A stretch of DNA of 14,507 nt from a virus. Lineage: Duplodnaviria; Heunggongvirae; Uroviricota; Caudoviricetes. The notes beneath the pieces were generated by a model. That model saw nothing but the letters and a program-made list of their open reading frames with translations, was not told the DNA's origin and ran no database searches. The position numbers and the translations under genes were made by a program. Positions 1-14,507 of the stretch are shown here, one piece after another (position 1 is the stretch's first letter; each line of letters starts with the position of its first letter). The stretch is taken from IMG/VR virus record IMGVR_UViG_2563366838_000011; one strand, 5' to 3'.

Positions 1-1254
1 ATGCTGGAACAAATGGGCATTGCCGCGAAGCAAGCCTCGTATAAATTAGCGCAACTCTCCAGCCGCGAAAAAAATCGCGTGCTGGAAAAAATCGCCGATG
101 AACTGGAAGCACAAAGCGAAATCATCCTCAACGCTAACGCCCAGGATGTTGCTGACGCGCGAGCCAATGGCCTTAGCGAAGCGATGCTTGACCGTCTGGC
201 ACTGACGCCCGCACGGCTGAAAGGCATTGCCGACGATGTACGTCAGGTGTGCAACCTCGCCGATCCGGTGGGGCAGGTAATCGATGGCGGCGTACTGGAC
301 AGCGGCCTGCGTCTTGAGCGTCGTCGCGTACCGCTGGGGGTTATTGGCGTGATTTATGAAGCGCGCCCGAACGTGACGGTTGATGTCGCTTCGCTGTGCC
401 TGAAAACCGGTAATGCGGTGATCCTGCGCGGTGGCAAAGAAACGTGTCGCACTAACGCTGCAACGGTGGCGGTGATTCAGGACGCCCTGAAATCCTGCGG
501 CTTACCGGCGGGTGCCGTGCAGGCGATTGATAATCCTGACCGTGCGCTGGTCAGTGAAATGCTGCGTATGGATAAATACATCGACATGCTGATCCCGCGT
601 GGTGGCGCTGGTTTGCATAAACTGTGCCGTGAACAGTCGACAATCCCGGTGATCACAGGTGGTATAGGCGTATGCCATATTTACGTTGATGAAAGTGTAG
701 AGATCGCTGAAGCATTAAAAGTGATCGTCAACGCGAAAACTCAGCGTCCGAGCACATGTAATACGGTTGAAACGTTGCTGGTGAATAAAAACATCGCCGA
801 TAGCTTCCTGCCCGCATTAAGCAAACAAATGGCGGAAAGCGGCGTGACATTACACGCAGATGCAGCTGCACTGGCGCAGTTGCAGGCAGGCCCTGCGAAG
901 GTGGTTGCTGTTAAAGCCGAAGAGTATGACGATGAGTTTCTGTCATTAGATTTGAACGTCAAAATCGTCAGCGATCTTGACGATGCCATCGCCCATATTC
1001 GTGAACACGGCACACAACACTCCGATGCGATCCTGACCCGCGATATGCGCAACGCCCAGCGTTTTGTTAACGAAGTGGATTCGTCCGCTGTTTACGTTAA
1101 CGCCTCTACGCGTTTTACCGACGGCGGCCAGTTTGGTCTGGGTGCGGAAGTGGCGGTAAGCACACAAAAACTCCACGCGCGTGGCCCAATGGGGCTGGAA
1201 GCACTGACCACTTACAAGTGGATCGGCATTGGTGATTACACCATTCGTGCGTAA
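1..1254 (+). CDS. proA: gamma-glutamyl phosphate reductase (glutamate-5-semialdehyde dehydrogenase), complete
   Basis: 417-aa ORF from ATG at 1 to TAA at 1252-1254; translation ([16 protein letters not shown]...[12 protein letters not shown]) recognised from memory as enterobacterial ProA; followed by tRNA-Thr as in the E. coli proA-thrW locus. Confidence 0.95.
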
Positions 1255-1368
1255 ATAAAACCGGGTGATGCAAAAGTAGCCATTTGATTCACAAGGCCAT
1301 TGACGCATCGCCCGGTTAGTTTTAACCTTGCCCACCGTGATTCACGTTCGTGAACATGTCCTTTCAGG

Positions 1369-1444
1369 GCCGATATAGCTCAGTTGGTAGAGCAGCGCAT
1401 TCGTAATGCGAAGGTCGTAGGTTCGACTCCTATTATCGGCACCA
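1369..1444 (+). tRNA. thrW: tRNA-Thr (anticodon CGU), 76 nt with encoded CCA
   Basis: GCCGATATAGCTCAGTTGGTAGAGCAGCGCATTCGTAATGCGAAGGTCGTAGGTTCGACTCCTATTATCGGCACCA: acceptor stem GCCGATA/TATCGGC, D-arm with AGCTCAGTTGGTAGAGC, anticodon CGT in loop TTCGTAA, T-arm GGTTCGACTCC, terminal CCA; integrase gene immediately downstream. Confidence 0.92.
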
Positions 1445-1461
1445 TTCAAACATCTCCCCAA

Positions 1462-1545
1462 GTCTACTAAAGTCTTTCAAAACCCCTTATAATCCGCGTA
1501 TTAAAGCCCCGTTCGTCTTTTGACGTCTACTAAAGTCCCTCAAAA
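1462..1545 (+). promoter_or_regulatory. att-proximal imperfect direct repeats GTCTACTAAAGTC(yyy)TCAAAA (1462-1482 and 1525-1545); candidate integrase arm-type or regulatory sites
   Basis: two copies of a 21-bp motif with a perfect 13-bp core GTCTACTAAAGTC, spaced 63 bp apart, between the tRNA 3' end and the integrase start. Confidence 0.35.
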
Positions 1546-1556
1546 TCTACGGTCAG

Positions 1557-1580
1557 ATGGGGGTACTTATGGGGGTATTT
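1557..1580 (+). repeat. tandem direct repeat ATGGGGGTACTT / ATGGGGGTATTT just upstream of the integrase RBS
   Basis: two adjacent 12-bp copies differing at one base; function unknown (possible protein-binding site in the int promoter region). Confidence 0.3.
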
Positions 1581-1609
1581 GCTGTTCGGTTTAGTGGAGG
1601 TACCCCCAA

Positions 1610-2824
1610 GTGAAACTCAATGCCCGTCAAATAGACACAGCCAAGCCAAAAGAGAAGGCTTACAAGCTGGCCGATGGTGGCGGTTTGTATCTCTTGGTAA
1701 AACCTAATGGAGGTAAATACTGGCGACTTAAATATCGTGTAGATGGTAAAGAGAAGCTATTGGCACTAGGTGTGTATCCTGAGGTTACTCTAGCCGATGC
1801 TCGGGCAAAACGTGAAGATGCGAAAAGAGGTATCGCTGGTGGTATCGATCCGATGGAAGCGAAACGAGAGGAAAAGATTGCCCGGGAAACGCAGTTAAAC
1901 AACACCTTCAAAGATATTGCCCTTGAGTGGCACAGCAGCAAATTAAAAAAATGGTCTGCTGGTTATGCTTCAGACATCCTCGAAGCCTTCAACAAAGATG
2001 TGTTCCCTTACATTGGCAAAAAACCAATCGCCGAAATCAAACCACTTGAACTTCTGAATGTGCTGCGGCGCATCGAGGGGCGCGGTGCTACAGAAAAAGC
2101 CAAAAAAGTGAGGCAGCGGTGCGGGGAAGTTTTCCGCTATGCAATAGTCACTGGTCGCGCAGAGTATAACCCTGCACCAGACCTTACTAGCGCGATGCAA
2201 GGCCATGAATCTAATCATTACCCTTTCCTTACAGCTAAAGAATTACCTGATTTTTTCAAGGCATTGTCCAGTTACTCAGGAAGCGCATTGGTTGTTATGG
2301 CGGCTCGTCTACTGATTATCACCGGCTTGCGGACTGGCGAACTACGTGGCGCATTATGGGATGAAATTGATTTCAACAAGGCTATCTGGGAGATACCCGC
2401 TTCACGTATGAAAATGCGGCGGCCTCATATTGTGCCATTGTCTGATCAGGCTCTTTCGCTTATTGGGAAGATTAGAGAAATAACAGGCAATTACCCTCTT
2501 ATGTTTCCCGGGCGCAATGATCCAAGGAAAACAATGAGTGAGGCCAGCATAAACCAAGTGTTTAAGCGCATTGGCTACGCTGGACGTGTAACTGGTCATG
2601 GGTTCCGGCACACTATGAGTACGATTTTGCATGAGCAGGGCTATAACACCGCGTGGATAGAAACGCAGCTCGCTCACGTTGATAAGAACTCAATTCGTGG
2701 CACATACAACCATGCGCAATATCTGGATGGAAGGCGGGAGATGCTTCAATGGTATGCCGACTATATGGATTCTCTCGAGCATGGCGGAAATGTGGTGCAT
2801 ATGGTGTTTGAAAAACACGCATGA
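1610..2824 (+). CDS. int: site-specific tyrosine recombinase, P4-type phage integrase
   Basis: 404-aa ORF with GTG start at 1610 preceded by GTGGAGG (1594-1600); N-terminal arm-binding-type region (AKPKEKAYKLADGGGLYLLVKPNGGKYWRLKYR), C-terminal catalytic region with HGFRHT and RGTYNHAQY motifs; placed directly beside a tRNA gene. Confidence 0.9.
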   Translation: MKLNARQIDTAKPKEKAYKLADGGGLYLLVKPNGGKYWRLKYRVDGKEKLLALGVYPEVTLADARAKREDAKRGIAGGIDPMEAKREEKIARETQLNNTFKDIALEWHSSKLKKWSAGYASDILEAFNKDVFPYIGKKPIAEIKPLELLNVLRRIEGRGATEKAKKVRQRCGEVFRYAIVTGRAEYNPAPDLTSAMQGHESNHYPFLTAKELPDFFKALSSYSGSALVVMAARLLIITGLRTGELRGALWDEIDFNKAIWEIPASRMKMRRPHIVPLSDQALSLIGKIREITGNYPLMFPGRNDPRKTMSEASINQVFKRIGYAGRVTGHGFRHTMSTILHEQGYNTAWIETQLAHVDKNSIRGTYNHAQYLDGRREMLQWYADYMDSLEHGGNVVHMVFEKHA

Positions 2825-2887
2825 AACAACTGGACAAGTATACAGAGGTTTACTAAAGTATAGGGGAGTAGATTGATAAAAACTCAC

Positions 2888-2937
2888 AGAGGATTGCTAT
2901 TTAACAGTTAGCCCTGGAGAAGGGCAATCGCTCTTTT
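2888..2937 (+). terminator. possible intrinsic terminator after int (imperfect stem AGAGGATTGC / GCAATCGCTCT followed by TTTT)
   Basis: about 10-bp imperfect stem with one bulge and a 26-nt loop containing an inner CCCT/AGGG hairpin, followed by TTTTAT; weak by sequence alone. Confidence 0.3.
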
Positions 2938-2967
2938 ATAAACGAAGGTGTATTGAGCCTTCTACGT

Positions 2968-3032
2968 CGCTGACAAAGCGGAATGTTCTTTAACAGGCTT
3001 TGGCGCTGACAAAGCGCAATTGTTCTTTAAAA
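2968..3032 (+). promoter_or_regulatory. 28-bp imperfect direct repeats CGCTGACAAAGCG-(G)AAT(T)-GTTCTTTAA (2968-2995 and 3004-3032); candidate operator sites in the int-alpA spacer
   Basis: two copies 36 bp apart, each with an internal CGCT/AGCG dyad; lie in the 428-bp non-coding spacer upstream of alpA. Confidence 0.4.
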
Positions 3033-3131
3033 CTACTGGATGTCACGCCTAATAGCGTGATCCTGCCGAAATGCAGGGTAGCTCTACCCTTGTGGAGCGA
3101 ACAAACCAAAACAATCTGACTATCTTTTATA

Positions 3132-3166
3132 AAAGACCGCAATATGTTTTTCATATTGTGGTCTTT
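3132..3166 (+). promoter_or_regulatory. 15-bp inverted repeat AAAGACCGCAATATG-TTTTT-CATATTGTGGTCTTT (one mismatch); candidate operator or RNA hairpin upstream of alpA
   Basis: near-perfect dyad with a 5-nt T spacer, about 90 bp upstream of the alpA start; not followed by a T-run, so not called a terminator. Confidence 0.35.
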
Positions 3167-3252
3167 GGCGTATTCGACATTTGACGCAAATAAAACTCTC
3201 GCCATTCGTTGCAGGAGGGGGTTATTGCGTCATTAGTACAGGATATTAATAA

Positions 3253-3456
3253 ATGGCTAATTACAATTCATTAATTCGTCTCTCTGAAGTTCAAAGGCGA
3301 ACTGGTTATAGCAAAGCATGGATTTATCGTCTTATTAGTCAGGGGAGGTTCCCTAAACAGGTAAAAATTGGAAGTCGGGCAATTGCTTTTGTTGAGTCTG
3401 AAATAGATGAATGGATTGAGAAGTGTATATTAGAATCTAGAGACGAGGTGGCCTGA
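3253..3456 (+). CDS. alpA: AlpA-family phage transcriptional regulator (small HTH DNA-binding protein)
   Basis: 67-aa ORF with AGGA 9 nt upstream; sequence LIRLSEVQRRTGYSKAWIYRLISQGRFPKQVKIGSRAIAFVESEIDEWI matches the AlpA/prophage CP4-57 regulator pattern; sits second after int as in P4-like islands and PICIs. Confidence 0.85.
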   Translation: MANYNSLIRLSEVQRRTGYSKAWIYRLISQGRFPKQVKIGSRAIAFVESEIDEWIEKCILESRDEVA

Positions 3457-3887
3457 TGGAAAAGAAAAACCGCCCATTACAGGCGGCTAATTCAGATATT
3501 CGTGTATCTGATGTTACGCCCCTTACAAAATCCCTTCAAGCACCAAAGCGCACACCGAAAAAGCATCGTGCCAGAGTCTATATGCTGCGTACTGGTATAG
3601 AGGGATGGACAGAAAATGACATTCTTCGCTACTGCCGTCTGTCTTCTGGTCGTAACTATGCAACAGAGTTAGAACGCCAGCTTGGAATCACTCTGGAGCG
3701 TATCGACGAAAAGAATCCTGATGGTATCGGAACACACCTTCGCTACCGTTTCTCCTGCCGTGGTGATGTTCTGAAAGTGATCACTCATATTAACCATCTT
3801 GCGAACATAAATGATCACAACGGACTTTCTCAGCAGGAAATTGCCGACATTCTGAAACTCTACCCGGACGCGTTTAACGCCGCCTAA
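3456..3887 (+). CDS. hypothetical protein, basic N-terminus, possible DNA-binding protein
   Basis: 143-aa ORF translationally coupled to alpA (TGATG overlap); Lys/Arg-rich N-terminal segment (PKRTPKKHRAR); no family recognised. Confidence 0.6.
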   Translation: MEKKNRPLQAANSDIRVSDVTPLTKSLQAPKRTPKKHRARVYMLRTGIEGWTENDILRYCRLSSGRNYATELERQLGITLERIDEKNPDGIGTHLRYRFSCRGDVLKVITHINHLANINDHNGLSQQEIADILKLYPDAFNAA

Positions 3888-3899
3888 CGGAGACTGAAA

Positions 3900-4733
3900 A
3901 TGAACATCGAAAAAAGCAGATTAATTTCTGAGGCCGCCCCTCATCTGAACGCCTCTCTGGGCACAATTAACGGTAATGAATTTGCCGCAATTGTCCCGGT
4001 TATTCCAGGTCACATCGGTGGGCGTGAAACCAATATTGTTAGCGCAAAAGCGTTACACAAAGCGTTGGGCGTGGGAAAAGACTTCTCTACATGGATCACT
4101 GATCGCATCTCTGAATATGACTTCACCATTGGGCACGATTACTCAGTCCATAAAACAATTTCCCCAAATTTGGGGAAAAGCCCGAATGGCACGGCTTACA
4201 GCAAGATTAAGCAGTCTGGCAGACCCGGCAAAGACTATCTGTTAAGTGTCGGAATGGCGAAAGAGCTGGCAATGATCGAACGCAATGATCAGGGTCGCGC
4301 TATCCGTCGTTATTTCATCCAGTGCGAGGAAGAATTACAGCGTAGCGTGCCTGAAATCGCCGCCCGCTATCGTCGCCAGCTAAAAGCCCGTATCAGTGCC
4401 GCAAACAACTTTAAGCCAATGTGCGATGCGCTGAATATGGCCCGTGCCGAGCAGGGGAAAACGACGCAGCAACACCACTACACAAACGAGAGCAATATGA
4501 TTTCTCGTATCGTTCTTGGAGGGCTAACTGCTAAGCAGTGGGCGCGGATAAATGGCTATTCTGGCGAACCTCGCGACCATATGAACGCAGAACAGCTTGA
4601 GCACCTCTCATATCTCGAAAGCACCAATATCACGTTAATTGATATGGGCATGGAATATGAGCAGCGCAAAGGAGAACTCACCCGCCTGTCGCAACGCTGG
4701 CTCGCCAAGCGTCTGGAGGCGGTCCATGTTTAA
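3900..4733 (+). CDS. phage antirepressor-like protein (AntA/Rha-type N-terminal domain)
   Basis: 277-aa ORF with GGAG 7 nt upstream; N-terminal motif SAKALHKALGVGKDFSTWITDRISEYDFTIGHDY resembles the conserved core of phage antirepressor (AntA/Rha) domains; assignment from motif memory only. Confidence 0.55.
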   Translation: MNIEKSRLISEAAPHLNASLGTINGNEFAAIVPVIPGHIGGRETNIVSAKALHKALGVGKDFSTWITDRISEYDFTIGHDYSVHKTISPNLGKSPNGTAYSKIKQSGRPGKDYLLSVGMAKELAMIERNDQGRAIRRYFIQCEEELQRSVPEIAARYRRQLKARISAANNFKPMCDALNMARAEQGKTTQQHHYTNESNMISRIVLGGLTAKQWARINGYSGEPRDHMNAEQLEHLSYLESTNITLIDMGMEYEQRKGELTRLSQRWLAKRLEAVHV

Positions 4734-4908
4734 GCCGACAGGAACACCACAACCTCAAAAACGCTACAAAGATGCCCACGGAGCACTCGTTACTGTCGAA
4801 AGCGTGTCTCACAACCGAGTGACGTTTTATCGCGACGGGTATCAATCGCCATGCGTACAACCGCTGGCGCGCTTCATGAAGGAGTTCGCGGAGGTTAACA
4901 AATGCTAA
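4726..4908 (+). CDS. small phage protein, DUF4222-like
   Basis: 60-aa ORF from ATG at 4726 with GGAGG 6 nt upstream, overlapping the upstream stop; pattern RYKDAHGALVTVESVSHNRVTFYRDGYQSPCVQPLARFMKEFAEV resembles small prophage proteins of the DUF4222 type (from memory). Confidence 0.5.
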   Translation: MFKPTGTPQPQKRYKDAHGALVTVESVSHNRVTFYRDGYQSPCVQPLARFMKEFAEVNKC

Positions 4909-5930
4909 CCGTCCAGAAGAAGATATTTTCACTGACTGCTATGTCGCAAAAATCCAGCAATATGACAGCAAAGTCTGGCATTAATACAGCAGATACAAGC
5001 AAAGCTTATCATTTTATGGTGGTAGGAGCGGATGCCTTAACTATGTCAGAAATTACGGTCGATGGTGTTAGCGTTGAGAAGGTCAGCGGCTGCGCCAGAG
5101 AATTTCTGGTCGTAGATGACCTGTTCTGCTCGCGTAGTGACTCCACAAAAATCTTCGTCCGCACGCGCGACGTTAACGAAATGAGCGCGATGTACTGTGC
5201 CTCTGGTTCTTCCAATAGTGAGTTTTCGGAGTCCATAAAAAAGAGCTTGCCGTTATGCGGCAACACGGTTTATGGTTATAAGGCACCTCATAAAACGGGT
5301 GCCGGGATTAGGACCCCGCAGGCAATCGAGGCGATACATGACGCGCCAGCGTCTTTTTTTGTATCGGCGCACACGCACACCTTATCAATGGTGGGCTGTA
5401 TGGGGCTGACTTCGGTCAGGCTGGTTTCCTTGATTGCCAGTAGTCCTAACCCTGTACAGTCCACCGCCAGCGAGCTTAGGACCTCCGGCGGTGGCTATAA
5501 ACCATCAATCAAGGAGGCTGCCACATGCTGGCTACTACCCCTACCCAAAAACCGCAATTTATCTGGATTATCGCCGCAGTTCGCCGCGATTGCCCGACAA
5601 TTACCGCCAAAATTCATCATATTGCTGCCGAGTCTGAACGCGATGCTCGCCGTTCTCTGGTGCGCGATCACATCTGCTTTTTTGCTGGTCGTATCCGCAT
5701 GGAGGTGGCACATGATTAAAACCTACGATGTGCATATGGATCCCCTCGAACGCACAAGCCAGATCATCACACTGACAGAAGTGATTAACGACATTCTGGT
5801 GAGCAACTCTCCCTCACGAGACGAAAGACTGAAGGCGTTACTCGCGATATTGGATCTCGCCGTTCGTGACGTTCATTTCCTGCTGGAAGGTGGACAAATG
5901 CCATGCAAAACGGGGGCAACCAATGAATAA
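4902..5930 (+). CDS. uncertain long ORF (342 codons); N-terminal about 125 codons protein-like, remainder of doubtful coding character
   Basis: ATG at 4902 overlaps the upstream stop (ATGCTAA) with GGAGG 9 nt upstream; the frame stays open for 1029 nt, but 5280-5520 translates to low-complexity S/T/P/L-rich sequence and contains hairpins and a terminator-like structure; the last 72 codons (from ATG 5712) look protein-like again. Confidence 0.3.
5340..5360 (+). terminator. terminator-like hairpin GACGC-GCCA-GCGTC followed by TTTTTTT, inside the long ORF
   Basis: 5-bp GC-rich stem, 4-nt loop, 7-T run at 5354-5360; a UUCG-tetraloop hairpin (CTGAC-TTCG-GTCAG, 5405-5418) and an 8-bp dyad (CCACCGCC...GGCGGTGG, 5461-5494) lie just downstream. 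Confidence 0.3.
5525..5719 (+). CDS. hypothetical small protein, alternative frame nested in the long ORF
   Basis: 64-aa ORF with strong SD (AAGGAGG) 7 nt upstream of ATG 5525; translation ([22 protein letters not shown]...RIRMEVAHD) is more protein-like than the overlapping frame of the long ORF. Confidence 0.35.
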   Translation: MLATTPTQKPQFIWIIAAVRRDCPTITAKIHHIAAESERDARRSLVRDHICFFAGRIRMEVAHD

Positions 5931-6117
5931 CTCAATTAATACCCCTCGCCTTACGTCCGCACTTCAATTAATCGAGCAAGCAGCGGCTGTCCTGGTTGCT
6001 GTCAGTCTTTCGGCTGAAGAAATGGACGCTGCTGATGTCGTGGATGCGATTAAAGCGTGCTCATCTTTGGTTAACGATGCCCGTGCCGAGCTGGTAATTC
6101 TTGGGGGTGAAAAATGA
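5923..6117 (+). CDS. hypothetical small protein (64 aa)
   Basis: ATG at 5923 overlapping the upstream stop (ATGAATAA); in frame with the track ORF 5866-6117; first gene of a coupled small-gene operon. Confidence 0.5.
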   Translation: MNNSINTPRLTSALQLIEQAAAVLVAVSLSAEEMDAADVVDAIKACSSLVNDARAELVILGGEK

Positions 6118-6377
6118 ATATCAACTTAATTTATCGTCATCCGTGTGAGCTGGAAATTGAATCATTGCTGGGGCGCGAAGAGCCATATCCAGACACATTC
6201 ACTCCCGCAGATTGCGCGACTGAACGGCTTACCAGAGCGCGCACAGGTCTGGTTCATGTGATGAATGAGATTGTTCCCTCGGTGGGAGGGGAACAGGCGA
6301 CAGTAATCAATAGCTGGCTACAAAAAGTTACCTCCCTGATAGATATCGGTTTAATCGATGTGGAGAGTGCGAAATGA
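6114..6377 (+). CDS. hypothetical protein (87 aa)
   Basis: ATGA start/stop overlap with the upstream gene, GGGGTG upstream; no family recognised. Confidence 0.55.
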   Translation: MNINLIYRHPCELEIESLLGREEPYPDTFTPADCATERLTRARTGLVHVMNEIVPSVGGEQATVINSWLQKVTSLIDIGLIDVESAK

Positions 6378-6595
6378 CCAACATCCAGCTCATTGAAGCG
6401 CAATGTCGCATCGAACAGGTTCAGACTGTTTTAGGGTTCTGGCTTGAAGGGGCCAGCCCCAGCAACAGAGACAAGTTAATGATTGGCGCGGTTATGTCAC
6501 TGCTCAATGGCGTACCAGAAGCTATTCAGGAAGCGGACGAATTGTTGGGCAAATATGAGTTACAGAATCATTCAGGCGAGGCGAAACATGAATAA
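6374..6595 (+). CDS. hypothetical protein (73 aa)
   Basis: ATGA overlap with the upstream gene, GGAGAG upstream; no family recognised. Confidence 0.55.
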   Translation: MTNIQLIEAQCRIEQVQTVLGFWLEGASPSNRDKLMIGAVMSLLNGVPEAIQEADELLGKYELQNHSGEAKHE

Positions 6596-7190
6596 TTTCT
6601 TAACTTTCCATGCAGAAGCAACGCCTGACGGCGTAAACATCATGTACCGCAGCAACGATGGCATGACAGAACGCGTTGAGACCGTCTCATATATTGATGC
6701 CGTAAATCGTCTGGATGCCGGGGATTATGACGATAAACCAGATGAAGGCATGTTTATACATCTCGCTATTGCCAGTGGCGGCAACCAGGGATATTTCGAT
6801 TACACATCACAGCATCACGTGATTATGTGGCGCTGGCTGATAGCAACAGCATTCATCAATGAAATGAGAAAGGAAAACGGCACTGTCAGCATCATTGATG
6901 ATACTGGCAATCCTTCCGAAGTGGCTGTTTATTCCAACGGCATCGTCGCCATGCCGCTGTATCCAGTAGCAGAGCGCCTCGCTATGGCAAACAACATTGA
7001 GGGCGCGATGATAGAACGTTTTGGCATCGAGTCTGGCACAGAACGCGCCATCATTTTCTACAGAGCCATGATGGATGTGGAACAAGGAGCACTGACTCCA
7101 TTTGGTCGTGAAACGCTTGCTGAACTTCACAACAGCTTTATAGCTGAACTGAATGAAAACGGCATGCCAGCGGAACCAGTGACGCACTGA
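6588..7190 (+). CDS. hypothetical protein (200 aa)
   Basis: ATG at 6588 overlapping the upstream stop by 8 nt, GAGG upstream; in frame with the track ORF 6483-7190, whose upstream extension would overlap the previous gene extensively; no family recognised. Confidence 0.6.
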   Translation: MNNFLTFHAEATPDGVNIMYRSNDGMTERVETVSYIDAVNRLDAGDYDDKPDEGMFIHLAIASGGNQGYFDYTSQHHVIMWRWLIATAFINEMRKENGTVSIIDDTGNPSEVAVYSNGIVAMPLYPVAERLAMANNIEGAMIERFGIESGTERAIIFYRAMMDVEQGALTPFGRETLAELHNSFIAELNENGMPAEPVTH

Positions 7191-7200
7191 GGATGGAGCC

Positions 7201-7542
7201 ATGATTACTAAAAATTTCCGACTGAATGCGCTGGCAAATAAGTATGCGTCAGCACTGTATAACCACATTACCTCCACCAGCGGCGGGGACTATTTCATGA
7301 TTGATGCGGACGGAGAGGCCGTCCGTGTGGAAATCGTCAATGGAGTAAAAGGCGTTCGCAGCCTGATCGATAGTTACGCACTGGCAGCCATGAAAGTGTT
7401 CTACCCGCAGTGGGAAACCGTGGGGATCGAGCTTCTTGATCGTTGCGTCACTAAGGACAGATTGACTGACGTCGGGCGTGAGATATGGCAAAGCATGGTT
7501 AATGACATGGGCGCAACTGTAGCGGGAGGTTCTCATGCGTGA
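7201..7542 (+). CDS. hypothetical protein (113 aa)
   Basis: ATG at 7201 with GAGGATGGAG upstream, 10 nt after the upstream stop; no family recognised. Confidence 0.6.
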   Translation: MITKNFRLNALANKYASALYNHITSTSGGDYFMIDADGEAVRVEIVNGVKGVRSLIDSYALAAMKVFYPQWETVGIELLDRCVTKDRLTDVGREIWQSMVNDMGATVAGGSHA

Positions 7543-7906
7543 AAATGTAGAAATGGCGCTTAGCTCCGCAATCGGAGAGCAGGTGGCAAAGATTGCTGGT
7601 GCTGTGTGGATTCATAACCTTCATTCTACTGGTGAAGAGAAAATGGCAATTCAGACGCCAGAGGGACGCACCATTACTACATCTCTGAAGCCGTCAGATG
7701 TTTGTGATCTGATTTGCGCATTCATGTACCCAGCAATGAGGACTGTCCACGGCGATAAGTGGAAACTTGCGACAACCGCTGAATTTGATATGTGGCTAAA
7801 CAATGATGGCATGCTGACTGATTACGGAATAACCAAGTGGCAGATGCTAGTTAGCCATATCGCAAACGCTATAGACCACGTGGGGTACGGTGATGCGAAA
7901 CATTGA
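7535..7906 (+). CDS. hypothetical protein (123 aa)
   Basis: ATG at 7535 with GGGAGG upstream, overlaps the upstream stop by 8 nt and the primase start; no family recognised. Confidence 0.6.
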   Translation: MRENVEMALSSAIGEQVAKIAGAVWIHNLHSTGEEKMAIQTPEGRTITTSLKPSDVCDLICAFMYPAMRTVHGDKWKLATTAEFDMWLNNDGMLTDYGITKWQMLVSHIANAIDHVGYGDAKH

Positions 7907-10649
7907 TCTTATCCGTCAGGTTATCAGTGCGTCTGAAAACAACTGGCCTCATGTGCTGGGCTGCCTGAACATAAATGTCCCTGACTCTCCGCGCCGTCAT
8001 GCTCCCTGCCCTGCATGTGGGGGCAAAGATCGATTCCGGTTCGATGACAACGGGCGCGGTAGCTTCATCTGTAATCAGTGCGGCGCTGGTGATGGGCTGG
8101 ATTTAATTAAACGCGTAAATAACTGCGACACAACAGAGGCGGCGCTTCTTGCCGCTGATGTTCTGGGTATTGATTACCGGACAACGGAAACACCAGAAGC
8201 CACCAGCCAGAAACGGGAACAACTGGAAACCGAGCGCCAGCGACGCGAACAGGAGCGCCTGAAAAGGGCAGAGAAGGACGAACAACAAAGACGGGATACG
8301 TTTTCCCGTCAGTTTGATGACATGCGCAGAAAGGCTGTAAACGGCAAATCTGATTATCTGGTTGCGAAAGGGGTAGGTGATTTTACATTCCCCGTGTTGC
8401 CCGATGGATCTCTGTTGCTGGCGCTGGTGGATAAATCCGGCGCAGTAACAGCAGCACAGACTATTACCTCACATGGTGAAAAAAGACTCCTGACAGGTTC
8501 AGCAAAGCGAGGGGCATATCACGCCATAAACGCACCAGAAACAACACAGAGCATCTTAATCGCAGAAGGGCTGGCAACGGCATTATCTGCCCATTTAATG
8601 CGTCCAGAGGCGCTGACAGTGGCGGCGATTGATGCCGGGAACCTGTTATATGTCGCCCAGGTACTGCGGGATAAATTTCCTTCAGCACAAATCATCATTG
8701 CTGCGGATAACGACCACAGCGAAGGAAGACAAAACACGGGGAGAATAGCAGCAGAAAAAGCAGCTTTATCTGTTTCTGGATGGGTGGCATTACCCCCGAC
8801 AGATCACAAAGCAGACTGGAATGATTACCACCAAAAACACGGCATTAAATGCGCCACAGAAGCGTTCAATAAGTCAATGTACCAACCACAGGGTAATGGC
8901 GTGAAACAGGAGCCACAGACCATTGAGGGAAGCGATTTTAAGGTTATGGATACCGATCCACTGAAACCAAGAATAGAAAGCCGCGAGGATGGTATTTATT
9001 GGGTATCTCCGAGAGCTGACAGCCAGAGTGGAGAAATCATCAATAACGAAAGCTGGTTATGTTCTCCGTTAAGCGTTATCGGTACTGGCAGAGACGATAA
9101 AGACCAGTATCTCATTCTTCGCTGGCTGTCGTTTGGTTCTGAAACGCCGACAACCGCTGCCATTCCACTGGCTGATATTGGTGAACGTGAAGGATGGCGC
9201 ACACTTAAAGCTGGTGGGGTAAATGTCACGACCAAAAGCAGCCTCAGAGCAATACTGGCAGACTGGCTACAACGCAGTGGCTCTCGTGAATTGTGGCGTG
9301 TTGCTCATGCCACTGGCTGGCAATGCGGAGCGTACATCATGCCTGATGGGGAAATCATCGGAACACCTGAAAATCCTGTGCTGTTCAGCGGGAGAAGCTC
9401 AGCCGCAGCCGGATATACCGTCTCAGGGAGCGCGAAAAGCTGGCGTGATAACGTGGCGCGTCTGGCCTTTGGTAACTATTCAATGATGACCGGGATCGGC
9501 GCAGCACTGGCAGCGCCATTGATTGGGCTGGTGGGCGCTGACGGGTTCGGCATTCATTTCTATGAGCAGTCGAGCGCAGGTAAGACCACCACGGCAAACG
9601 TGGCGAGCAGCTTATACGGCAACCCTGATTTACTGCGGCTGACGTGGTACGGAACCGCGCTGGGGCTGGCAAATGAGGCCGCCGCCCACAATGACGGACT
9701 AATGCCGCTTGATGAAGTTGGTCAGGGCGCTGATCCTGTCAGCGTTTCACAGTCTGCCTATGCGTTATTTAACGGTGTAGGGAAACTGCAAGGCGCTAAA
9801 GATGGTGGAAACCGGGATCTAAAACGCTGGCGTACAGTGGCAATCAGCACCGGAGAAATGGATTTAGAAACATTTATCGCTACTTCCGGGCGAAAAACCA
9901 AAGCCGGGCAACTGGTGCGACTGCTGAATATTCCGTTGAGTAAAGCAGTACGCTTTCACGATTACCAGAACGGAAAACAGCACGCAGACGCACTGAAAGA
10001 CGCTTACCAGCATCACCACGGCGCGTCCGGGCGTGAGTGGATTAAATGGCTGGCAGACCACCAGCAACAGGCTATTAAAACCGTTCGTGACTGCGAAAGC
10101 AGATGGAGAAGCCTGATCCCATCCGATTATGGTGAGCAGGTTCACCGTGTAGCCGCGCGATTTGCCATTCTGGAGGCCGCATTGTTGTTAGGCGAGGTTG
10201 TAACAGGCTGGGATGCTCAGACATGCCGTGATGCGATACAGCACAGCTATAACGCATGGTTGCGCGAGTTCGGCACAGGTAACAAAGAGCATCAGCAGAT
10301 TATTGAACAAACGGAGGCATTTCTTAATGCCTATGGGCTTAGCCGTTTTGCACCATTTCCATACAGCCCGGCAGATTTGCCCATCAAAGATTTAGCCGGA
10401 TACCGTCAGCGTGGAGAACATGACGAAAGCCCAATGATTTTCTACACATTCCCGGCCACATTTGAAAAGGAGATCGCATGTGGTTTCAACGCAAAACAGT
10501 TTGCTGAAGTGTTGAAAAAAGCCGGGATGCTAACCCCACCAAACAGCGGTCGTGGATACCAAAGAAAATCACCACGTATTCAGGGACGACAAATAAACGT
10601 TTATGTACTCAATTACCAGCCAGGAGATTATAACTCATCTGAAGAATGA
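7893..10649 (+). CDS. primase-helicase replication protein (P4 alpha-like / PICI Pri-Rep): zinc-ribbon, TOPRIM and P-loop NTPase domains
   Basis: 918-919-aa ORF (ATG 7893, or GTG 7890 as in the track); Cys motif CPACGG...CNQCG; TOPRIM-like segment ILIAEGLATALS...IIIAADNDH; Walker A motif SSAGKTT near residue 555; iteron origin immediately downstream. Confidence 0.88.
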   Translation: MRNIDLIRQVISASENNWPHVLGCLNINVPDSPRRHAPCPACGGKDRFRFDDNGRGSFICNQCGAGDGLDLIKRVNNCDTTEAALLAADVLGIDYRTTETPEATSQKREQLETERQRREQERLKRAEKDEQQRRDTFSRQFDDMRRKAVNGKSDYLVAKGVGDFTFPVLPDGSLLLALVDKSGAVTAAQTITSHGEKRLLTGSAKRGAYHAINAPETTQSILIAEGLATALSAHLMRPEALTVAAIDAGNLLYVAQVLRDKFPSAQIIIAADNDHSEGRQNTGRIAAEKAALSVSGWVALPPTDHKADWNDYHQKHGIKCATEAFNKSMYQPQGNGVKQEPQTIEGSDFKVMDTDPLKPRIESREDGIYWVSPRADSQSGEIINNESWLCSPLSVIGTGRDDKDQYLILRWLSFGSETPTTAAIPLADIGEREGWRTLKAGGVNVTTKSSLRAILADWLQRSGSRELWRVAHATGWQCGAYIMPDGEIIGTPENPVLFSGRSSAAAGYTVSGSAKSWRDNVARLAFGNYSMMTGIGAALAAPLIGLVGADGFGIHFYEQSSAGKTTTANVASSLYGNPDLLRLTWYGTALGLANEAAAHNDGLMPLDEVGQGADPVSVSQSAYALFNGVGKLQGAKDGGNRDLKRWRTVAISTGEMDLETFIATSGRKTKAGQLVRLLNIPLSKAVRFHDYQNGKQHADALKDAYQHHHGASGREWIKWLADHQQQAIKTVRDCESRWRSLIPSDYGEQVHRVAARFAILEAALLLGEVVTGWDAQTCRDAIQHSYNAWLREFGTGNKEHQQIIEQTEAFLNAYGLSRFAPFPYSPADLPIKDLAGYRQRGEHDESPMIFYTFPATFEKEIACGFNAKQFAEVLKKAGMLTPPNSGRGYQRKSPRIQGRQINVYVLNYQPGDYNSSEE

Positions 10650-10674
10650 GCTTCTTCATGTGCGTAGAAAAGGT

Positions 10675-10785
10675 GTTGGTTCAGTTGGTTCAGTTGGTTC
10701 AATTTGTAAAGAGTATTGTTTTATAAGGATTTTATTCTTTTTATTGAACCAACACTGAACCAACAACACGGTATTTTGAACCAAC
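10675..10785 (+). repeat. iteron-type replication origin: three tandem GTTGGTTCA (10675-10701), 43-bp AT-rich spacer, three inverted copies TGAACCAAC (10745-10753, 10756-10764, 10777-10785)
   Basis: read directly from sequence; sits just 3' of the primase-helicase gene, the usual ori position in P4-like satellites and PICIs; the track ORFs overlapping it (10656-10895 minus, 10716-10967 plus) are probably spurious. Confidence 0.7.
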
Positions 10786-10836
10786 ACAATGTGACTGAAT
10801 TGATGCGCACAACACCTGGCTGGCATCAGAGAGTGT

Positions 10837-10911
10837 TTTACGAGACTTTCGTAAAATCCTGTGTACAAGGGCGTGACGTTTTTGAAAGTGAGCACTACGA
10901 AATTTTCGTAG
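10837..10911 (+). promoter_or_regulatory. two related dyads TTTACGA-N5-TCGTAAA (10837-10855) and CTACGAA-ATT-TTCGTAG (10895-10911); candidate operator pair
   Basis: 7-bp perfect inverted arms sharing an ACGA/TCGT core, about 58 bp apart, in the non-coding region between the ori and the downstream operon. Confidence 0.3.
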
Positions 10912-11105
10912 TTCAGAAAACAGCCTCTGAGAAGTTGTTATGCCTGTTCAGCAAACCATCCGCATAGCTGATCGCGAATCAAATTACCAATGGAGCCAGA
11001 AGCAAGGGCAGAACTGAAAAGCGCCTGCCGTGAAGAGTAATGCGACACCATAAATATAGTTTTTAGAGTCCATAAAAAACCTGTCAAAACCTGACACACA
11101 GAACG

Positions 11106-11138
11106 ATGCCACCAGCTACTGAGCGGTGGCATTTTTTT
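11106..11138 (+). terminator. rho-independent terminator (8-bp stem ATGCCACC / GGTGGCAT, 11-nt loop, then TTTTTTT)
   Basis: perfect 8-bp GC-rich stem at 11106-11113 / 11125-11132 followed by 7 T at 11132-11138; oriented for + strand transcripts. Confidence 0.55.
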
Positions 11139-11233
11139 GTGCTATTTGTTTCATATTTTGCAATTACGATGATGAATATTGCGATTTGTGAAACTATAAT
11201 AACTGTTGTTTTATACAGTTCTAAGGGGGCGTT

Positions 11234-11395
11234 ATGGCTATTTCAGTAAAGCCGGTATTGATAAGTGAGAAGCAAATGGAAGCGATAAAGAAAATTCAGG
11301 AAGAGCAGCGTAAAAAATCAGGAATTGGAGTAGCGCCAACTCTGCATGAAATTGCACGAGGGTTAATAGATAAGGCGCTGGCAGGCTGTATGTGA
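11234..11395 (+). CDS. small protein (53 aa), possible ribbon-helix-helix-type DNA-binding regulator
   Basis: not in the ORF track (below its length cutoff); ATG at 11234 with AAGGGGG upstream and a TATAAT box at 11195-11200; translation MAISVKPVLISEKQMEAIKKIQEEQRKKSGIGVAPTLHEIARGLIDKALAGCM has a strand-helix-helix layout compatible with an RHH fold (inference). Confidence 0.45.
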   Translation: MAISVKPVLISEKQMEAIKKIQEEQRKKSGIGVAPTLHEIARGLIDKALAGCM

Positions 11396-11411
11396 AAATG
11401 GATGGCATCGC

Positions 11412-11873
11412 ATGGAACTAAAATTTATTGATAACCCTGTGCGATTACAGGCCTTTCTTAACGAGCCAGGCAATACCGAAAATATTGTTGAGCCGGGGCA
11501 CACGTACTACATCAAGCCTGATGCGGTATATCTCGGCATCTACGAAGGATTAGTGCTGGCTGGCGTTCATGAAGTGCGTAACTTCTGGCATAGCGTTGTT
11601 GAATGCCATGCGGTGTACGACCCCGGATTCCGTGGTGAATATGCACTGCAAGGACATCGATTATTCTGCAAATGGCTTCTCGAAAACTCACCATTCCTTA
11701 ACAGCATCACTATGGTTCCTGACACCACGAAATACGGACGGGCAATTATCCGTTTGCTTGGCGCTACCCGTGTTGGTCACCTTGATGATGCTTATATCAG
11801 ATGTGGTAAACCCGTCGGCGTAACGCTTTATCAGTTAACTCGGCAACAATATAAGGAATTCAGCGAATGTTAA
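11412..11873 (+). CDS. hypothetical phage protein (153 aa), first gene of the virion-protein-like operon
   Basis: ATG at 11412, 17 nt after the small ORF; its stop overlaps the next start (ATGTTAA); no family recognised; occupies the position of P22 gp14 in a 14-7-20-16-like gene order (positional inference only). Confidence 0.6.
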   Translation: MELKFIDNPVRLQAFLNEPGNTENIVEPGHTYYIKPDAVYLGIYEGLVLAGVHEVRNFWHSVVECHAVYDPGFRGEYALQGHRLFCKWLLENSPFLNSITMVPDTTKYGRAIIRLLGATRVGHLDDAYIRCGKPVGVTLYQLTRQQYKEFSEC

Positions 11874-12544
11874 TTACCCATATAGCTCATAAACATCTCA
11901 ATCGTGCCGTATACGAAAAAGGCGGTGATGGTGGTGCCTCTAAAGCTCAGGCGAAGGCCCAGCAGCAGGCAATTGATTTGCAGCGCGAGCAGTGGAATAC
12001 GGTGATGAATAATCTCAAGCCGTATGCAGAAGTCGGATTGCCTGCTTTACAACAACTACAAGGACTGATGACTCTGGAAGGGCAGAATAAAGCCGCGAAT
12101 GATTTCTTTGGTTCTGGTTTATATAAAACACAGGCAGATCAGGCCCGTTATCAGAACCTTGTCTCAGCAGAAGCTACCGGGGGGCTTGGCTCAACAGCTA
12201 CCAGTAACCAGTTATCTTCCATTGCGCCCATGCTTTATAACAATTGGCTTAGTGGGCAAATGCAAAATTATGGAAACCTGCTAAATGTCGGGATGAATGC
12301 GGCATCAGGGCAGGCAACGGCAGGGCAAAACTACGCCAATAATACCGGACAACTCTTGCAGGGGCTTGGCGCTATTCGTGCAGGTCAGGCGCAGCAGCCA
12401 TCCAGTCTTGCGCGTGGTATTGGTGGGGCAGCATCAGGCGCTTTAGCGGGTGCGCAACTTGGTTCCGTTGTTCCTGGAATAGGAACTGCGGCCGGCGCTA
12501 TTGGTGGTGGGCTTATTGGTCTTGTTGGGGGGCTTGGATTCTAA
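11867..12544 (+). CDS. putative phage DNA-ejection/internal virion protein with C-terminal glycine-zipper segment
   Basis: 225-aa ORF with AAGGA upstream; Gln/Asn/Ala-rich middle; C-terminus GIGGAASGALAGAQLGSVVPGIGTAAGAIGGGLIGLVGGLGF made of GxxxG/GxxxA repeats typical of membrane-inserting glycine zippers; size and position resemble P22 gp7-type ejection proteins (inference). Confidence 0.6.
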   Translation: MLITHIAHKHLNRAVYEKGGDGGASKAQAKAQQQAIDLQREQWNTVMNNLKPYAEVGLPALQQLQGLMTLEGQNKAANDFFGSGLYKTQADQARYQNLVSAEATGGLGSTATSNQLSSIAPMLYNNWLSGQMQNYGNLLNVGMNAASGQATAGQNYANNTGQLLQGLGAIRAGQAQQPSSLARGIGGAASGALAGAQLGSVVPGIGTAAGAIGGGLIGLVGGLGF

Positions 12545-13863
12545 TGGCGACATGGCAACTTGGCGGGCTGCCTAGCATGGCACCGCAAAATGATAATGCT
12601 CCTCGTTCTTCCGTTCCTCAGCCTGTGCAGTATCAGCAGCAGCCAAACGTAGGTTTAATGGCGCTACAGGGGCTAAGAGGCGTTGCTGAGATTAATCAGC
12701 AGGCGCAAATTTCCCAGCAGCTAAAAGAATATCAGGCACGGTTGGGTAGTGCGGTAGCTAATAATGATCGTGTTGGCGTGCATAAGTTAATGGCCCAGTA
12801 TCCCCAGTTTATGGCTGATTCTCAAAAACAGATGGGATTCATTGATGCTGAGCAAAATCGGCAGACCGCTGACGCTGCCATGAATCTGCGTCTTGCGTCA
12901 CAAACTGGAGATCCACTGACCATGCAGAAGGCCATTCAGCAGGCAAATCCAGTATTACAGCGATTTGGTCTTCCTGCTGAAGAGGTTTATCAGTCTTGGC
13001 AGAATGACCCACAGGAATTCAACAGAATCACTGACCTCATCCACCTCCATGCTGATCCAAATAGTTACTTTAGTGTTCAAGAGAAGCAGCAAGGGCAGAG
13101 TATTGCACAGCAGAACGCAGATACATCTGCATATAATGCTCAGGTTAATGCGGAGCAGGGTAATCGGCGGCTCGATATGGAGCAGTTCAAAGTCCTATCC
13201 GATAACCAACTACGCACGAGAGAAATGGTTCTGAAAGCACGACTTGGACGTGCTCAAAATGACATCGAGAGAGACAAGCTCAATGCTGAACTGAGCAAGG
13301 TACAGCAGGCGAAAGTGGAGAAGATGAACGATAAAATTAATACTGTTGCAGGTAATATCGACTCCTTGAACTCTGCGCTTGAAGTGGGTCATGAACTGGC
13401 GGGAATTGTAGGGAAACATCCTTCGGCCGTTACCCGTTCGCAGAACTATAACCCCCTGACGCTGGGGTTTGGATTCCTCCCTGATGTAGCAGAAGACACA
13501 CGAAGCCTACGCGCCAAAGCTGATGAATACAACCTAAAGGTTATTCTGCCTAGCCTAAAAGGTACTTTTGGCTCTAACCCAACCGAAGGGGAAAGGGCTG
13601 CCCTTATGCAATCTCAAAATGGCATTAAGTCAGCAACCAGCAATGAGGCATTTTTGCGAGAGTTGAATAAAGCGCAGGACGTAATTATTCGAATGCAGAA
13701 ACGACAGATTGCCGGGCTCGGTATTCCTGTAACCAAATCTAAGGACGAAGAAACTGATACCAAAATGCTGTTGCAGGATCCTTCACTGGTTAAGGATTAT
13801 GTGACCGCACATGGCTATCTGCCGGAAAGTTACTATCAGGCAAAACTTAAGGGATGGCAATGA
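12544..13863 (+). CDS. putative phage ejection/internal virion protein, Gln-rich coiled-coil protein (439 aa)
   Basis: start overlaps the upstream stop (TAATG); very Gln/Ala/Asn-rich with heptad-like charged stretches (LRTREMVLKARLGRAQNDIERDKLNAELSKVQQAKVEKMNDKIN); no family recognised; positional analog of P22 gp20 or T7 gp15 (inference). Confidence 0.6.
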   Translation: MATWQLGGLPSMAPQNDNAPRSSVPQPVQYQQQPNVGLMALQGLRGVAEINQQAQISQQLKEYQARLGSAVANNDRVGVHKLMAQYPQFMADSQKQMGFIDAEQNRQTADAAMNLRLASQTGDPLTMQKAIQQANPVLQRFGLPAEEVYQSWQNDPQEFNRITDLIHLHADPNSYFSVQEKQQGQSIAQQNADTSAYNAQVNAEQGNRRLDMEQFKVLSDNQLRTREMVLKARLGRAQNDIERDKLNAELSKVQQAKVEKMNDKINTVAGNIDSLNSALEVGHELAGIVGKHPSAVTRSQNYNPLTLGFGFLPDVAEDTRSLRAKADEYNLKVILPSLKGTFGSNPTEGERAALMQSQNGIKSATSNEAFLRELNKAQDVIIRMQKRQIAGLGIPVTKSKDEETDTKMLLQDPSLVKDYVTAHGYLPESYYQAKLKGWQ

Positions 13864-14370
13864 TGGCACAACTGACAGAAAAACAGAAAGCCTATTCCCG
13901 TCATCTCGATGAAAAATATGGTTTCCCATCAGGGACGATGGAAACATTAGTTGGCAATGAATCTAGTGGTAACGGAAGTGCCGAGTCACCGAAAGGAGCT
14001 AGAGGATTTGCTCAACTGATGCCCTCAGTAATGAGTGATGCTGGTTATCGTGGAACAGATCCGCGCTCACTGCCATTTGAAAAGCAAATGGATATCGCAG
14101 CAAACCATCTCAATAAAGGAATGAAGCGATTTGGTGATATAGGTATGGCATTGGCTGGGTATAATTCTGGCTATGCTCGTATTAATGCCGTAAGAAACGG
14201 TAAATCTACACTGCCAGATGAAACGGCTAATTACGTAAGTAAATTTGCAGATGCCGGAATAATCCCTGATGACAGTGAAATCTTGCAGTTTGCACAAACC
14301 AGTCAACATCGCAATCTTCAGCAGCCTGACTACTCAGAGCTTGATAAAGAAATCTCTCAGGTGGGAGATA
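13860..14370 (+). CDS. lytic transglycosylase (SLT) domain protein, N-terminal part of a phage internal virion/ejection-type protein, interrupted by an IS insertion
   Basis: ATG at 13860 (AAGGG 6 nt upstream, overlaps the upstream stop); SLT family-1 motifs in order: ES in VGNESSGN, GFAQLMP, AGYNSGY; the frame runs without a stop into the IS terminus at 14371, so the native 3' part is displaced. Confidence 0.6.
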
Positions 14371-14507
14371 TGAACCGCCCCGGGTTTCCTGGAGAGTGTT
14401 TTATCTGTGAACTCAGGCTGCCAGATCATCGTTTCCGATGGAAGCATAATAAGCTTTTTCTGCTTCTGCCGGAGGAGTATGGCCCAGCCTTTCCAGCAAT
14501 CGTCGAT
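14371..14507 (-). mobile_element. IS3-family insertion sequence terminus (IS629/IS1203-like), partial, continues beyond the window
   Basis: sequence from 14371 (TGAACCGCCCCGGGTTTCCTGGAGAGTG...) matches my recollection of the IS629 terminal inverted repeat; the minus strand encodes a typical IS3-family OrfB C-terminus. Confidence 0.7.
14413..14507 (-). CDS. IS3-family transposase OrfB, C-terminal fragment (5' end outside the window)
   Basis: minus-strand translation ends ...RRLLERLGHTPPAEAEKAYYASIGNDDLAA with stop TGA (complement of 14413-14415). Confidence 0.7.
   Translation of the reverse strand, partial: RRLLERLGHTPPAEAEKAYYASIGNDDLAA

Follow-up and report, generated by a model that had tools for sequence, protein, structure and literature searches.

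A glycine-zipper protein of the P22 gp7 ejection family on an allele of the phage satellite EcCIMP1

A stretch of 14,507 nucleotides recorded as a virus of the Caudoviricetes (IMG/VR record IMGVR_UViG_2563366838_000011; this whole stretch is called the window below) contains an open reading frame (ORF) for a protein of 225 amino acids (aa) that ends in a tail rich in glycine. What is such a tail for? An earlier reading of the window, made without database searches (the sequence-only reading), pointed out that segments of this kind occur both in phage ejection proteins and in small pore-forming toxins, and proposed that the protein could perturb the inner membrane if it were expressed from the island without a virion context. 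Here we establish which family the protein belongs to, which island carries its gene, that gene order and residues are conserved, and that the gene is under purifying selection. In our view the ORF is probably the gp7 part of a P22-type genome-ejection machine that is carried by an allele of the phage satellite EcCIMP1. The coordinates of all features are collected in Table 1.

We began with the tail itself. The last 40 residues (GGAASGALAGAQLGSVVPGIGTAAGAIGGGLIGLVGGLGF) comprise 34 G, A, I, L or V (85%) with 15 glycines and no charged residue, compared to 42% of these residue types and 12% glycine in the rest of the protein, and the final 45 residues hold nine Gxxx[G/A] motifs. Shuffling of the whole protein gave nine or more such motifs in any 45-residue window in only 61 of 5000 cases, so the compositional patch does not arise by chance. 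Shuffling of the tail alone reached this number in 1840 of 5000 cases; the spacing seen in a single sequence thus follows from composition. A MAFFT alignment of 42 homologues (57-86% identity) gave the answer on spacing: G187, G191, A192, G195, G210 and G218 are invariant, while G199 (90%), P203 (90%), G206 (98%), G214 (90%) and G221 (98%) are conserved in at least 90% of the sequences. The glycine register is therefore real, because it is conserved across the homologues. That is, the G/A/I/L/V-rich composition and GxxxG/GxxxA spacing that the sequence-only reading had described for the last 40 or so residues were confirmed.

In a second approach, the entire protein was compared with profile databases. 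It matched the Pfam family P22_gp7 (PF25688) with an E of 6.6e-73 and 245.8 bits (cut-off 28), residues 16-223 covering profile positions 19-229 of 230, and the 'DNA ejection' family phrog_598 with an E of 3.2e-70. The family set used here (PF25688, PHROG 598) includes homologues in the phages L, Sf6, CUS-3, HK620, APSE and Kapi1. Identity is 55% to P22 gp7, 62% to phage L gp7, 58% to Kapi1 gp7 and 98.7% to the protein of EcCIMP1 in Escherichia coli MP1. P22_gp7 was the sole Pfam match at E<=1, without any glycine-zipper or toxin family, and a sequence search of the PDB returned nothing relevant (a single nanobody, E 0.21). Judged by these alignments, the 225-aa protein is a full-length member of the P22_gp7 family, which bears out the ejection-protein side of the sequence-only reading.

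Two further regions of P22 gp7 can be recognized. Residues 1-20 of the P22 protein are removed before virion assembly, and residues 90-126 wedge between the subunits of the gp10 tail hub (10.64898/2026.09.03.749273). The P22 propeptide site aligns with Y16-E17/K18-G19-G20 (the slash marking the predicted cut), where G19 is invariant among the 42 homologues and K18 is conserved in 90% or more of them. For the wedge, which we call the fingertip, the block E102-A111 is invariant in the 42 sequences; nowhere else is the family so strongly conserved. All four gp10-contact positions of P22 (100, 101, 108 and 123) are identical here (R94, Y95, E102 and S117). The reading as an ejection protein with a putative propeptide is thus supported by residue-level alignment.

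The function of the tail has become clear for P22. According to a 2026 preprint on infecting P22 studied in situ by cryo-electron microscopy, processed gp7 (gp7*) is a dodecamer whose central helices make an extracellular tube and which enters the outer membrane of the infected cell from outside, with gp10 as template of the dodecamer and gp20 as its stabilizer (10.64898/2026.09.03.749273). The resulting outer-membrane pore has 36 helices, 24 from the V-shaped gp7 C-terminus (two per subunit) and 12 from gp20, and the gp7 residues embedded in the bilayer are I191, L204, I208, I218, I222, L224, L225 and F229 (10.64898/2026.09.03.749273). Mapped through the alignment, seven of these eight positions are hydrophobic in the protein studied here, and 14 of the 15 residues that form gp7-gp7 hydrogen bonds in P22 are identical. 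Of the gp20-contact residues three out of five are kept, which is expected because the partner gp20 is just 26-28% identical to known ones. As aligned, the tail is built of two G-x3-G-x3-G(-x3-G) arms, residues 185-202 and 205-225, split by a Pro-Gly turn. We infer that this glycine zipper is the outer-membrane hairpin of the P22_gp7 family, the hairpin structure itself having been shown for P22 only. The membrane-inserting helices of the sequence-only reading find their counterpart in the tail of the P22 orthologue, but the membrane entered in P22 is the outer one of the recipient and not the inner one. Perturbation of the inner membrane without a virion is not supported, given that the P22 tail enters from outside as part of a gp10-templated, gp20-stabilized dodecamer.

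Glycine zippers are found in some pore-forming peptides. A toxin, that is, a pore-former expressed from the island that depolarizes the inner membrane from the cytoplasm in a holin-like or bacteriocin-like manner, would be in keeping with the uncharged, Gly-rich and hydrophobic tail. We consider it highly improbable. The homology to gp7 spans the full length, the Pfam search at E<=1 gave neither a glycine-zipper nor a toxin family, and every conserved partner in the operon is an ejection protein; moreover, cytoplasmic gp7 is a normal late product of each phage lytic cycle. Hydrophobicity is borderline for a transmembrane call (Kyte-Doolittle 19-residue maximum of 1.61, residues 205-223), and the GenBank record of the homologue in the helper phage, Kapi1_056, carries the DeepTMHMM note 'outside 1-225', that is, no transmembrane helix is predicted. 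The N-terminus (MLITHIAHKHLNRAVYEKGGDGG), as read from the sequence, has no hydrophobic signal-peptide core. In P22, the tail requires templating by gp10 as well as gp20 for a stable seat in the outer membrane (10.64898/2026.09.03.749273). The likeness to small pore-forming toxins thus did not hold up in the Pfam or PADLOC searches or in the N-terminal sequence.

Is there a virion context? The window starts with proA and tRNA-Thr(CGT), followed by a tyrosine integrase, an AlpA-type regulator, an AntA-type antirepressor, an Ash-region ORF with several small ORFs, a primase, a 53-aa ORF and the gene cassette to which the gp7-like gene belongs. Over positions 1254-14371 the window shares 98.3% nucleotide identity with E. 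coli MP1, in the chromosomal region of EcCIMP1, a phage-inducible chromosomal island (PICI) of 19,963 bp (Pick, Stadel & Raivio, ISME J 2025; PMC11773190). The island is an allele of EcCIMP1 at tRNA-Thr beside proA. It has an integrase at one end, a tRNA site with direct repeats, AlpA and a primase, and no capsid, tail, terminase or lysis genes; nor did the island loci contain a coat, gp4, gp10 or gp26 homologue. In an intact relative (locus L001) the second copy of the attachment-site (att) core is 19.5 kb downstream, and in MP1 it is 19,963 bp downstream, which puts attR beyond the window. With a 24-nt stretch from the tRNA 3' end as query, neither an exact nor a 3-mismatch search gave an attR, but attR was located in the relatives with the published 10-bp core.

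The biology of EcCIMP1 has been worked out with the P22-like prophage Kapi1. Its att core was defined experimentally, excision occurs only with Kapi1 present, integrase and alpA are needed for excision and transfer, and the island is transduced by Kapi1, which itself lacks generalized transduction (PMC11773190). An island without a virion context, as the sequence-only reading had considered, is therefore not what we see: this is an allele of a PICI that is packaged and transferred by a P22-like phage. The proteins EcCIMP1_017-019 were likened by the authors to 'DNA transfer'/DUF2824 proteins with a suggested packaging role (PMC11773190); the paper did not recognize a complete gp14/7/20/16 ejection set. 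Our search for literature on satellites with ejection proteins gave only this paper and a transcriptome follow-up, the latter silent on these genes.

This set is what surrounds the gp7-like gene. The cassette has the order gp14-gp7-gp20-gp16 (DUF2824, P22_gp7, Inj_translocase, SLT+gp16), the same as in P22 and phage L. Stop and start codons overlap from gene to gene (...GAATGTTAA, TAATG, ATGATG), which argues for translational coupling, and a Shine-Dalgarno-like AAGGAA precedes the ATG of the 225-aa ORF. The gp14-like protein is 85% identical to Kapi1 gp14 and 23% to that of P22, while the gp20-like protein reaches 26-28% with Kapi1, P22 and L. PADLOC and NCBIfam gave no match or useful name for any cassette protein. 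The gp16-like protein carries an SLT lytic-transglycosylase region (aa ~8-138) fused to the gp16 body: the intact copy in the relative (L001 17261-19981) matches SLT (PF01464) with residues 15-117 and phrog_770 with residues 187-862, and PF26808 (Phage_P22_gp16) is recorded on the Citrobacter orthologue. When the SLT part was compared with 50,697 phage records, the best 15 of 33 matches were 32-40% identical and none came from a P22-like phage; all 33 were below 60%. The gp16 of a Pectobacterium island lacks the SLT domain. In the window, an insertion sequence (IS) of the IS3 family cuts the SLT-gp16 gene after about 171 codons, and the reading frame continues into IS sequence up to the window end. 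The segment 14372-14507 is the source of the matches, numbering in the thousands, that carry the annotation 'IS3 family transposase' in E. coli genomes.

Such a cassette could also be an inert remnant without present function, derived from a P22-like prophage that either occupied thrW in the past or underwent recombination with the island. An incomplete prophage was the initial call for the MP1 region (PMC11773190), the 85% identity of gp14 to Kapi1 suggests exchange with helper-type phages, the gp16-like gene is disrupted in the window, and ash and icd pseudogenes exist in some island alleles. We therefore turn to the distribution of the cassette and to the selection acting on it. Among 5426 complete E. 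coli genomes, about 71 contain 80% or more of window positions 10600-14507. Genomic context was read for each gp7 relative whose locus was retrievable. With gp7 at least 72% identical, every locus read was adjacent to a primase, had the order 53aa-gp14-gp7-gp20-gp16 and lacked coat, gp4, gp10 and gp26; these are loci at E. coli thrW, at a second E. coli site near xseA/guaB, in the Citrobacter freundii complex, Leclercia adecarboxylata, Pectobacterium polonicum and a food metagenome. With gp7 at most 66% identical, every locus read was a complete P22-like prophage (coat-gp4-gp10-gp26-gp14-gp7-gp20-gp16), found in Klebsiella aerogenes, Kluyvera, Proteus, Morganella, Providencia, Arsenophonus and one further enterobacterium. 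No gp7 above 70% identity was detected among the 50,697 phage genomes by tblastn, which masks the low-complexity tail so that coverage ends near residue 172. Between genera, island gp7 shows a ratio of nonsynonymous to synonymous substitutions (dN/dS) of 0.04-0.07 with dS above 1.5.

These numbers make an inert remnant improbable: the order primase-53aa-gp14-gp7-gp20-gp16 is kept in at least four genera at differing integration sites, dN/dS is low with dS saturated, the ORFs are intact and annotated as ordinary coding sequences in the 25 best E. coli records, and the lack of a close gp7 in phage records indicates an old separate lineage. As judged from distribution and substitution patterns, island gp7 is a long-maintained satellite-borne lineage under purifying selection and not a recent prophage fragment.

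How would a satellite use such a set? Under the explanation we favour, an ejection machine of the P22 type, a P22-like helper such as Kapi1 would go lytic and the island would be induced, whereupon the coupled operon gp14-gp7-gp20-(SLT)gp16 would be expressed. gp7 would shed about 17 N-terminal residues and be loaded with gp20 and gp16 into procapsids built by the helper. At the next cell, twelve gp7 copies would exit via the tail, the fingertip (residues ~84-120) docking on the hexameric gp10 hub and the central helices building the extracellular tube. The C-terminal hairpin would then enter the outer membrane of the recipient, where two helices per subunit, plus one N-terminal gp20 helix per subunit, would give the 36-helix pore. 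Small Gly/Ala faces would permit tight helix packing, with the interspersed I, L, V and F facing lipid.

By analogy with P22, we infer that the island proteins are loaded into helper capsids and used for island transfer. Foreign gp7/gp20/gp16 triads, with a gp16 just 22-26% identical, assemble into functional P22 virions; in these virions gp16 and gp20 must be a matched pair, and gp7 can be swapped alone (Leavitt et al. 2024). This matching requirement would fit a satellite that carries the whole set.

Helper interference is common among PICIs. The island ejection proteins might accordingly serve to spoil or block phage DNA delivery, either by co-assembly with helper ejection proteins into mismatched, non-infectious virions or via the superinfection immunity associated with EcCIMP1. 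Indeed, island gp20 and gp16 are just 24-26% identical to those of the helper, and mismatched gp16/gp20 pairs yield non-infectious P22 particles (Leavitt et al. 2024). Furthermore, EcCIMP1 raises the resistance of Kapi1 lysogens to Kapi1 superinfection, the responsible gene being unmapped; Kapi1 titres from induced lysogens, however, are unaffected by EcCIMP1 (PMC11773190). The gp7-like protein, read from its sequence, has no signal peptide and hence no route from inside to the outer membrane or periplasm, and none of the cassette proteins has a PADLOC match. A co-adapted set of four genes under strong purifying selection, gp10-docking residues included, also exceeds what a decoy would need. 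Interference is thus an unlikely explanation, albeit the least unlikely of the three rivals considered here.

Several points weigh against the ejection machine that we favour. Standard transmembrane predictors would probably fail to call the tail. The AlphaFold2 monomer computed from the 42-sequence alignment was unusable (mean predicted local distance difference test 41.6, predicted template modelling score 0.31, C-terminus non-helical) and thus uninformative, so the hairpin follows from alignment to P22 without an independent prediction; such a poor monomer model would be in line with folding that takes place only within a templated dodecamer. In this strain the cassette is probably non-functional as a set, though gp7 is intact, because IS3 cuts gp16, gp16 and gp20 must match, and the gp16 of the helper is just 24% identical. 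In addition, the packaging role of EcCIMP1_017-019 is a proposal of the EcCIMP1 authors, transduction by Kapi1 is inefficient, and a Kapi1-like prophage is present in only 2 of 21 EcCIMP1-carrying strains (PMC11773190). Finally, the helper supplies its own ejection proteins, which leaves the need for a second set unexplained.

For that need, our favoured candidate is independence from the helper's ejection proteins, which could mean escape from SieA-type exclusion or an added peptidoglycan hydrolase. The gp7/gp20/gp16 triad of HK620 partly escapes SieA exclusion. More specifically, and as a tentative proposal that we hold with less than even confidence, EcCIMP1-type satellites may load their own gp14, gp7, gp20 and SLT-armed gp16 into capsids from P22-like helpers, so that entry would then be independent of the ejection proteins of the helper.

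Upstream of gp14, the 53-aa ORF recurs with 91% identity in Citrobacter islands, 85% in those of Leclercia and 48% in those of Pectobacterium. None of the libraries Pfam, PHROG, NCBIfam and PADLOC gave a match for it; the phages examined have gene 26 directly next to gene 14, with no such ORF between them. A small regulator acting on the cassette is one possible role. A sigma-70 scan of positions 10500-14400 gave no plus-strand promoter, and terminator-like matches were unconvincing; by analogy with EcCIMP1, regulation of the cassette is presumably AlpA-dependent. Between primase and 53-aa ORF, the window has a gap of ~580 bp (10650-11233) without a convincing gene. In Citrobacter islands and a second E. 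coli island, this gap is filled by genes for SSB, a ProQ-domain protein and a 329-aa protein (L004 6719-9106; L026 7198-9108). This gap appears to be a variable cargo slot.

Within the cassette, identity to the helper Kapi1 (L010 5547-10181) drops from gene to gene, with 85% for gp14, 58% for gp7, 26% for gp20 and 24% for gp16, and residues 1-17 of gp7 are far closer to Kapi1 than to P22. Such a pattern resembles that of a mosaic junction located within gene 7. When several other loci (L002, L003, L010, L012, L017-L022 and L030) were compared with window positions 11412-11917, the type of gp14 and the type of gp7 propeptide co-varied: P22-type gp14 pairs with '..FKLGRKLRGEEPxYPE/KGG', and Kapi1/island-type gp14 (23% identical to that of P22) with 'MLIxQIANKHLxRAVYx/KGG'. 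The co-variation hints that gp14 may act on the gp7 propeptide; the two are adjacent, hence simple linkage could also explain it.

Island alleles differ elsewhere too. The Ash-region ORF (4902-5930) is a continuous frame of 342 aa in the window, and an ORF of the same length in strain DLI.6n is annotated as ash family; the annotations of NCTC9040 and MP1 show ash and icd-like fragments or pseudogenes in this region. Positions 5362-5419 of the window fail to align with MP1. The DLI.6n island has an IS3 within its primase, and its '100%' match is pieced together from segments. At thrW, tandem elements are found (L001 24379-31772; L009 1-7826). The island is followed there by a CP4-6-like remnant (ykfI/yafW and others) in NCTC9040 and by a vat/MarR island in MP1, and both strains have a PerC-family regulator inside the PICI boundaries near the far end.

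Table 1. Features of the window discussed in the text, with strand and basis of assignment.
Feature	Position	Strand	Basis or remark
tRNA-Thr(CGT), integration site	1369..1444	+	ARAGORN
att core TCCTATTATC	1428-1437		matches published EcCIMP1 core
Tyrosine integrase	1610..2824	+	Arm-DNA-bind_3, Phage_int_M and Phage_integrase on L001 copy (100% identical protein)
AlpA-type regulator	3253..3456	+	100% identical to protein at EcCIMP1 alpA position in MP1
Zn-ribbon/Toprim/DUF927 primase-helicase (replication module)	7890..10649	+	Pfam on L001 copy (100% identical protein); phrog_1139 on window copy
53-aa ORF (MAISVKPVLISEKQMEAIKKIQEEQRKK...) upstream of gp14	11234..11395	+	present ahead of cassette in every island examined
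P22 gp14-like (DUF2824), first cassette gene	11412..11873	+	PF11039 E 1.5e-61; phrog_651; 7-nt overlap with gp7 start
P22 gp7-family ejection protein, 225 aa	11867..12544	+	ATG-to-TAA ORF; PF25688 and phrog_598 matches
Predicted N-terminal propeptide, residues 1-17, putative cleavage E17/K18	11867..11917	+	aligns with P22 gp7 residues 1-20
Fingertip, residues 84-120 (~P22 gp7 90-126)	12116..12226	+	conservation and alignment of P22 gp10 contacts
Putative glycine-zipper arm 1, residues 185-202 (IGGAASGALAGAQLGSVV)	12419..12472	+	conserved Gly/Ala; P22 I191, L204, I208 align with I185, L198, V202
Putative Pro-Gly turn joining the arms, P203-G204	12473..12478	+	P203 90% conserved; fits V-shaped P22 gp7 C-terminus
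Putative glycine-zipper arm 2, residues 205-225 (IGTAAGAIGGGLIGLVGGLGF)	12479..12541	+	conserved Gly; P22 I222, L224, L225, F229 align with I217, L219, V220, F225
gp20-like ejection protein, 439 aa	12544..13863	+	PF16928 Inj_translocase E 2.3e-22; phrog_917, phrog_2534; start overlaps gp7 stop (TAATG)
SLT-gp16-like ejection protein, 5' part	13860..14371	+	IS-interrupted; 906 aa in intact relatives
End of IS3-family element inside gp16-like gene	14372..14507	.	divergence from intact islands at 14371/14372

Compared to known systems, the protein is closest in design to P22 gp7 (225 versus 229 aa, 55-62% identity over the full length to the gp7 proteins of P22, L and Kapi1, position between gp14 and gp20), with which it shares the putative propeptide site, the gp10-docking fingertip, the gp7-gp7 hydrogen-bond residues and a two-armed glycine-zipper C-terminus with the same hydrophobic positions. 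In contrast to P22 gp7, the island copy sits in a capsid-less and tail-less satellite beside a primase and not after the tail-needle gene 26, and island copies form a separate clade to which no phage record is more than 70% identical. Their partners gp20 and gp16 are just 24-28% identical to those of known phages, and island gp16, unlike that of P22, carries the extra SLT domain. With EcCIMP1 the window shares the tRNA-Thr/proA site, att core and gene order, and the gp7-like proteins differ by three substitutions; the window allele differs in its IS3 within the gp16-like gene and in having a 342-aa ash-region ORF where the MP1 annotation has pseudogenes. A common logic links the island set to phage T7, whose internal core proteins gp14, gp15 and gp16 leave the virion and form a channel across the envelope. 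The place assigned to T7 gp14 is the outer membrane, and T7 gp16 has an N-terminal lytic transglycosylase domain like the island gp16-like protein. However, no sequence similarity was detected, with nothing relevant in the PDB search made with the 225-aa protein, architecture and stoichiometry differ, and T7 is not the helper type for the island.

What does this mean for phage satellites? The glycine zipper is already explained as the hallmark C-terminus of a known family of ejection proteins, with a role recently resolved in P22. New is a satellite-borne P22_gp7 member on an already published island, and the point worth following is the satellite-encoded ejectosome. It is of moderate interest that satellites of at least four enterobacterial genera keep an ejection set that has diverged from that of the helper, under strong purifying selection and without capsid or tail genes. 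If such satellites do load their own set, their entry could bypass SieA-type exclusion, which targets gp20/gp16, or cross envelopes that are closed to the helper. The helper would then be hijacked by swapping the internal cargo of the virion, not capsid size or packaging specificity, for which the literature searched holds no satellite precedent. This would matter for the host range of satellites, for escape from superinfection exclusion and for efforts to engineer transducing particles.

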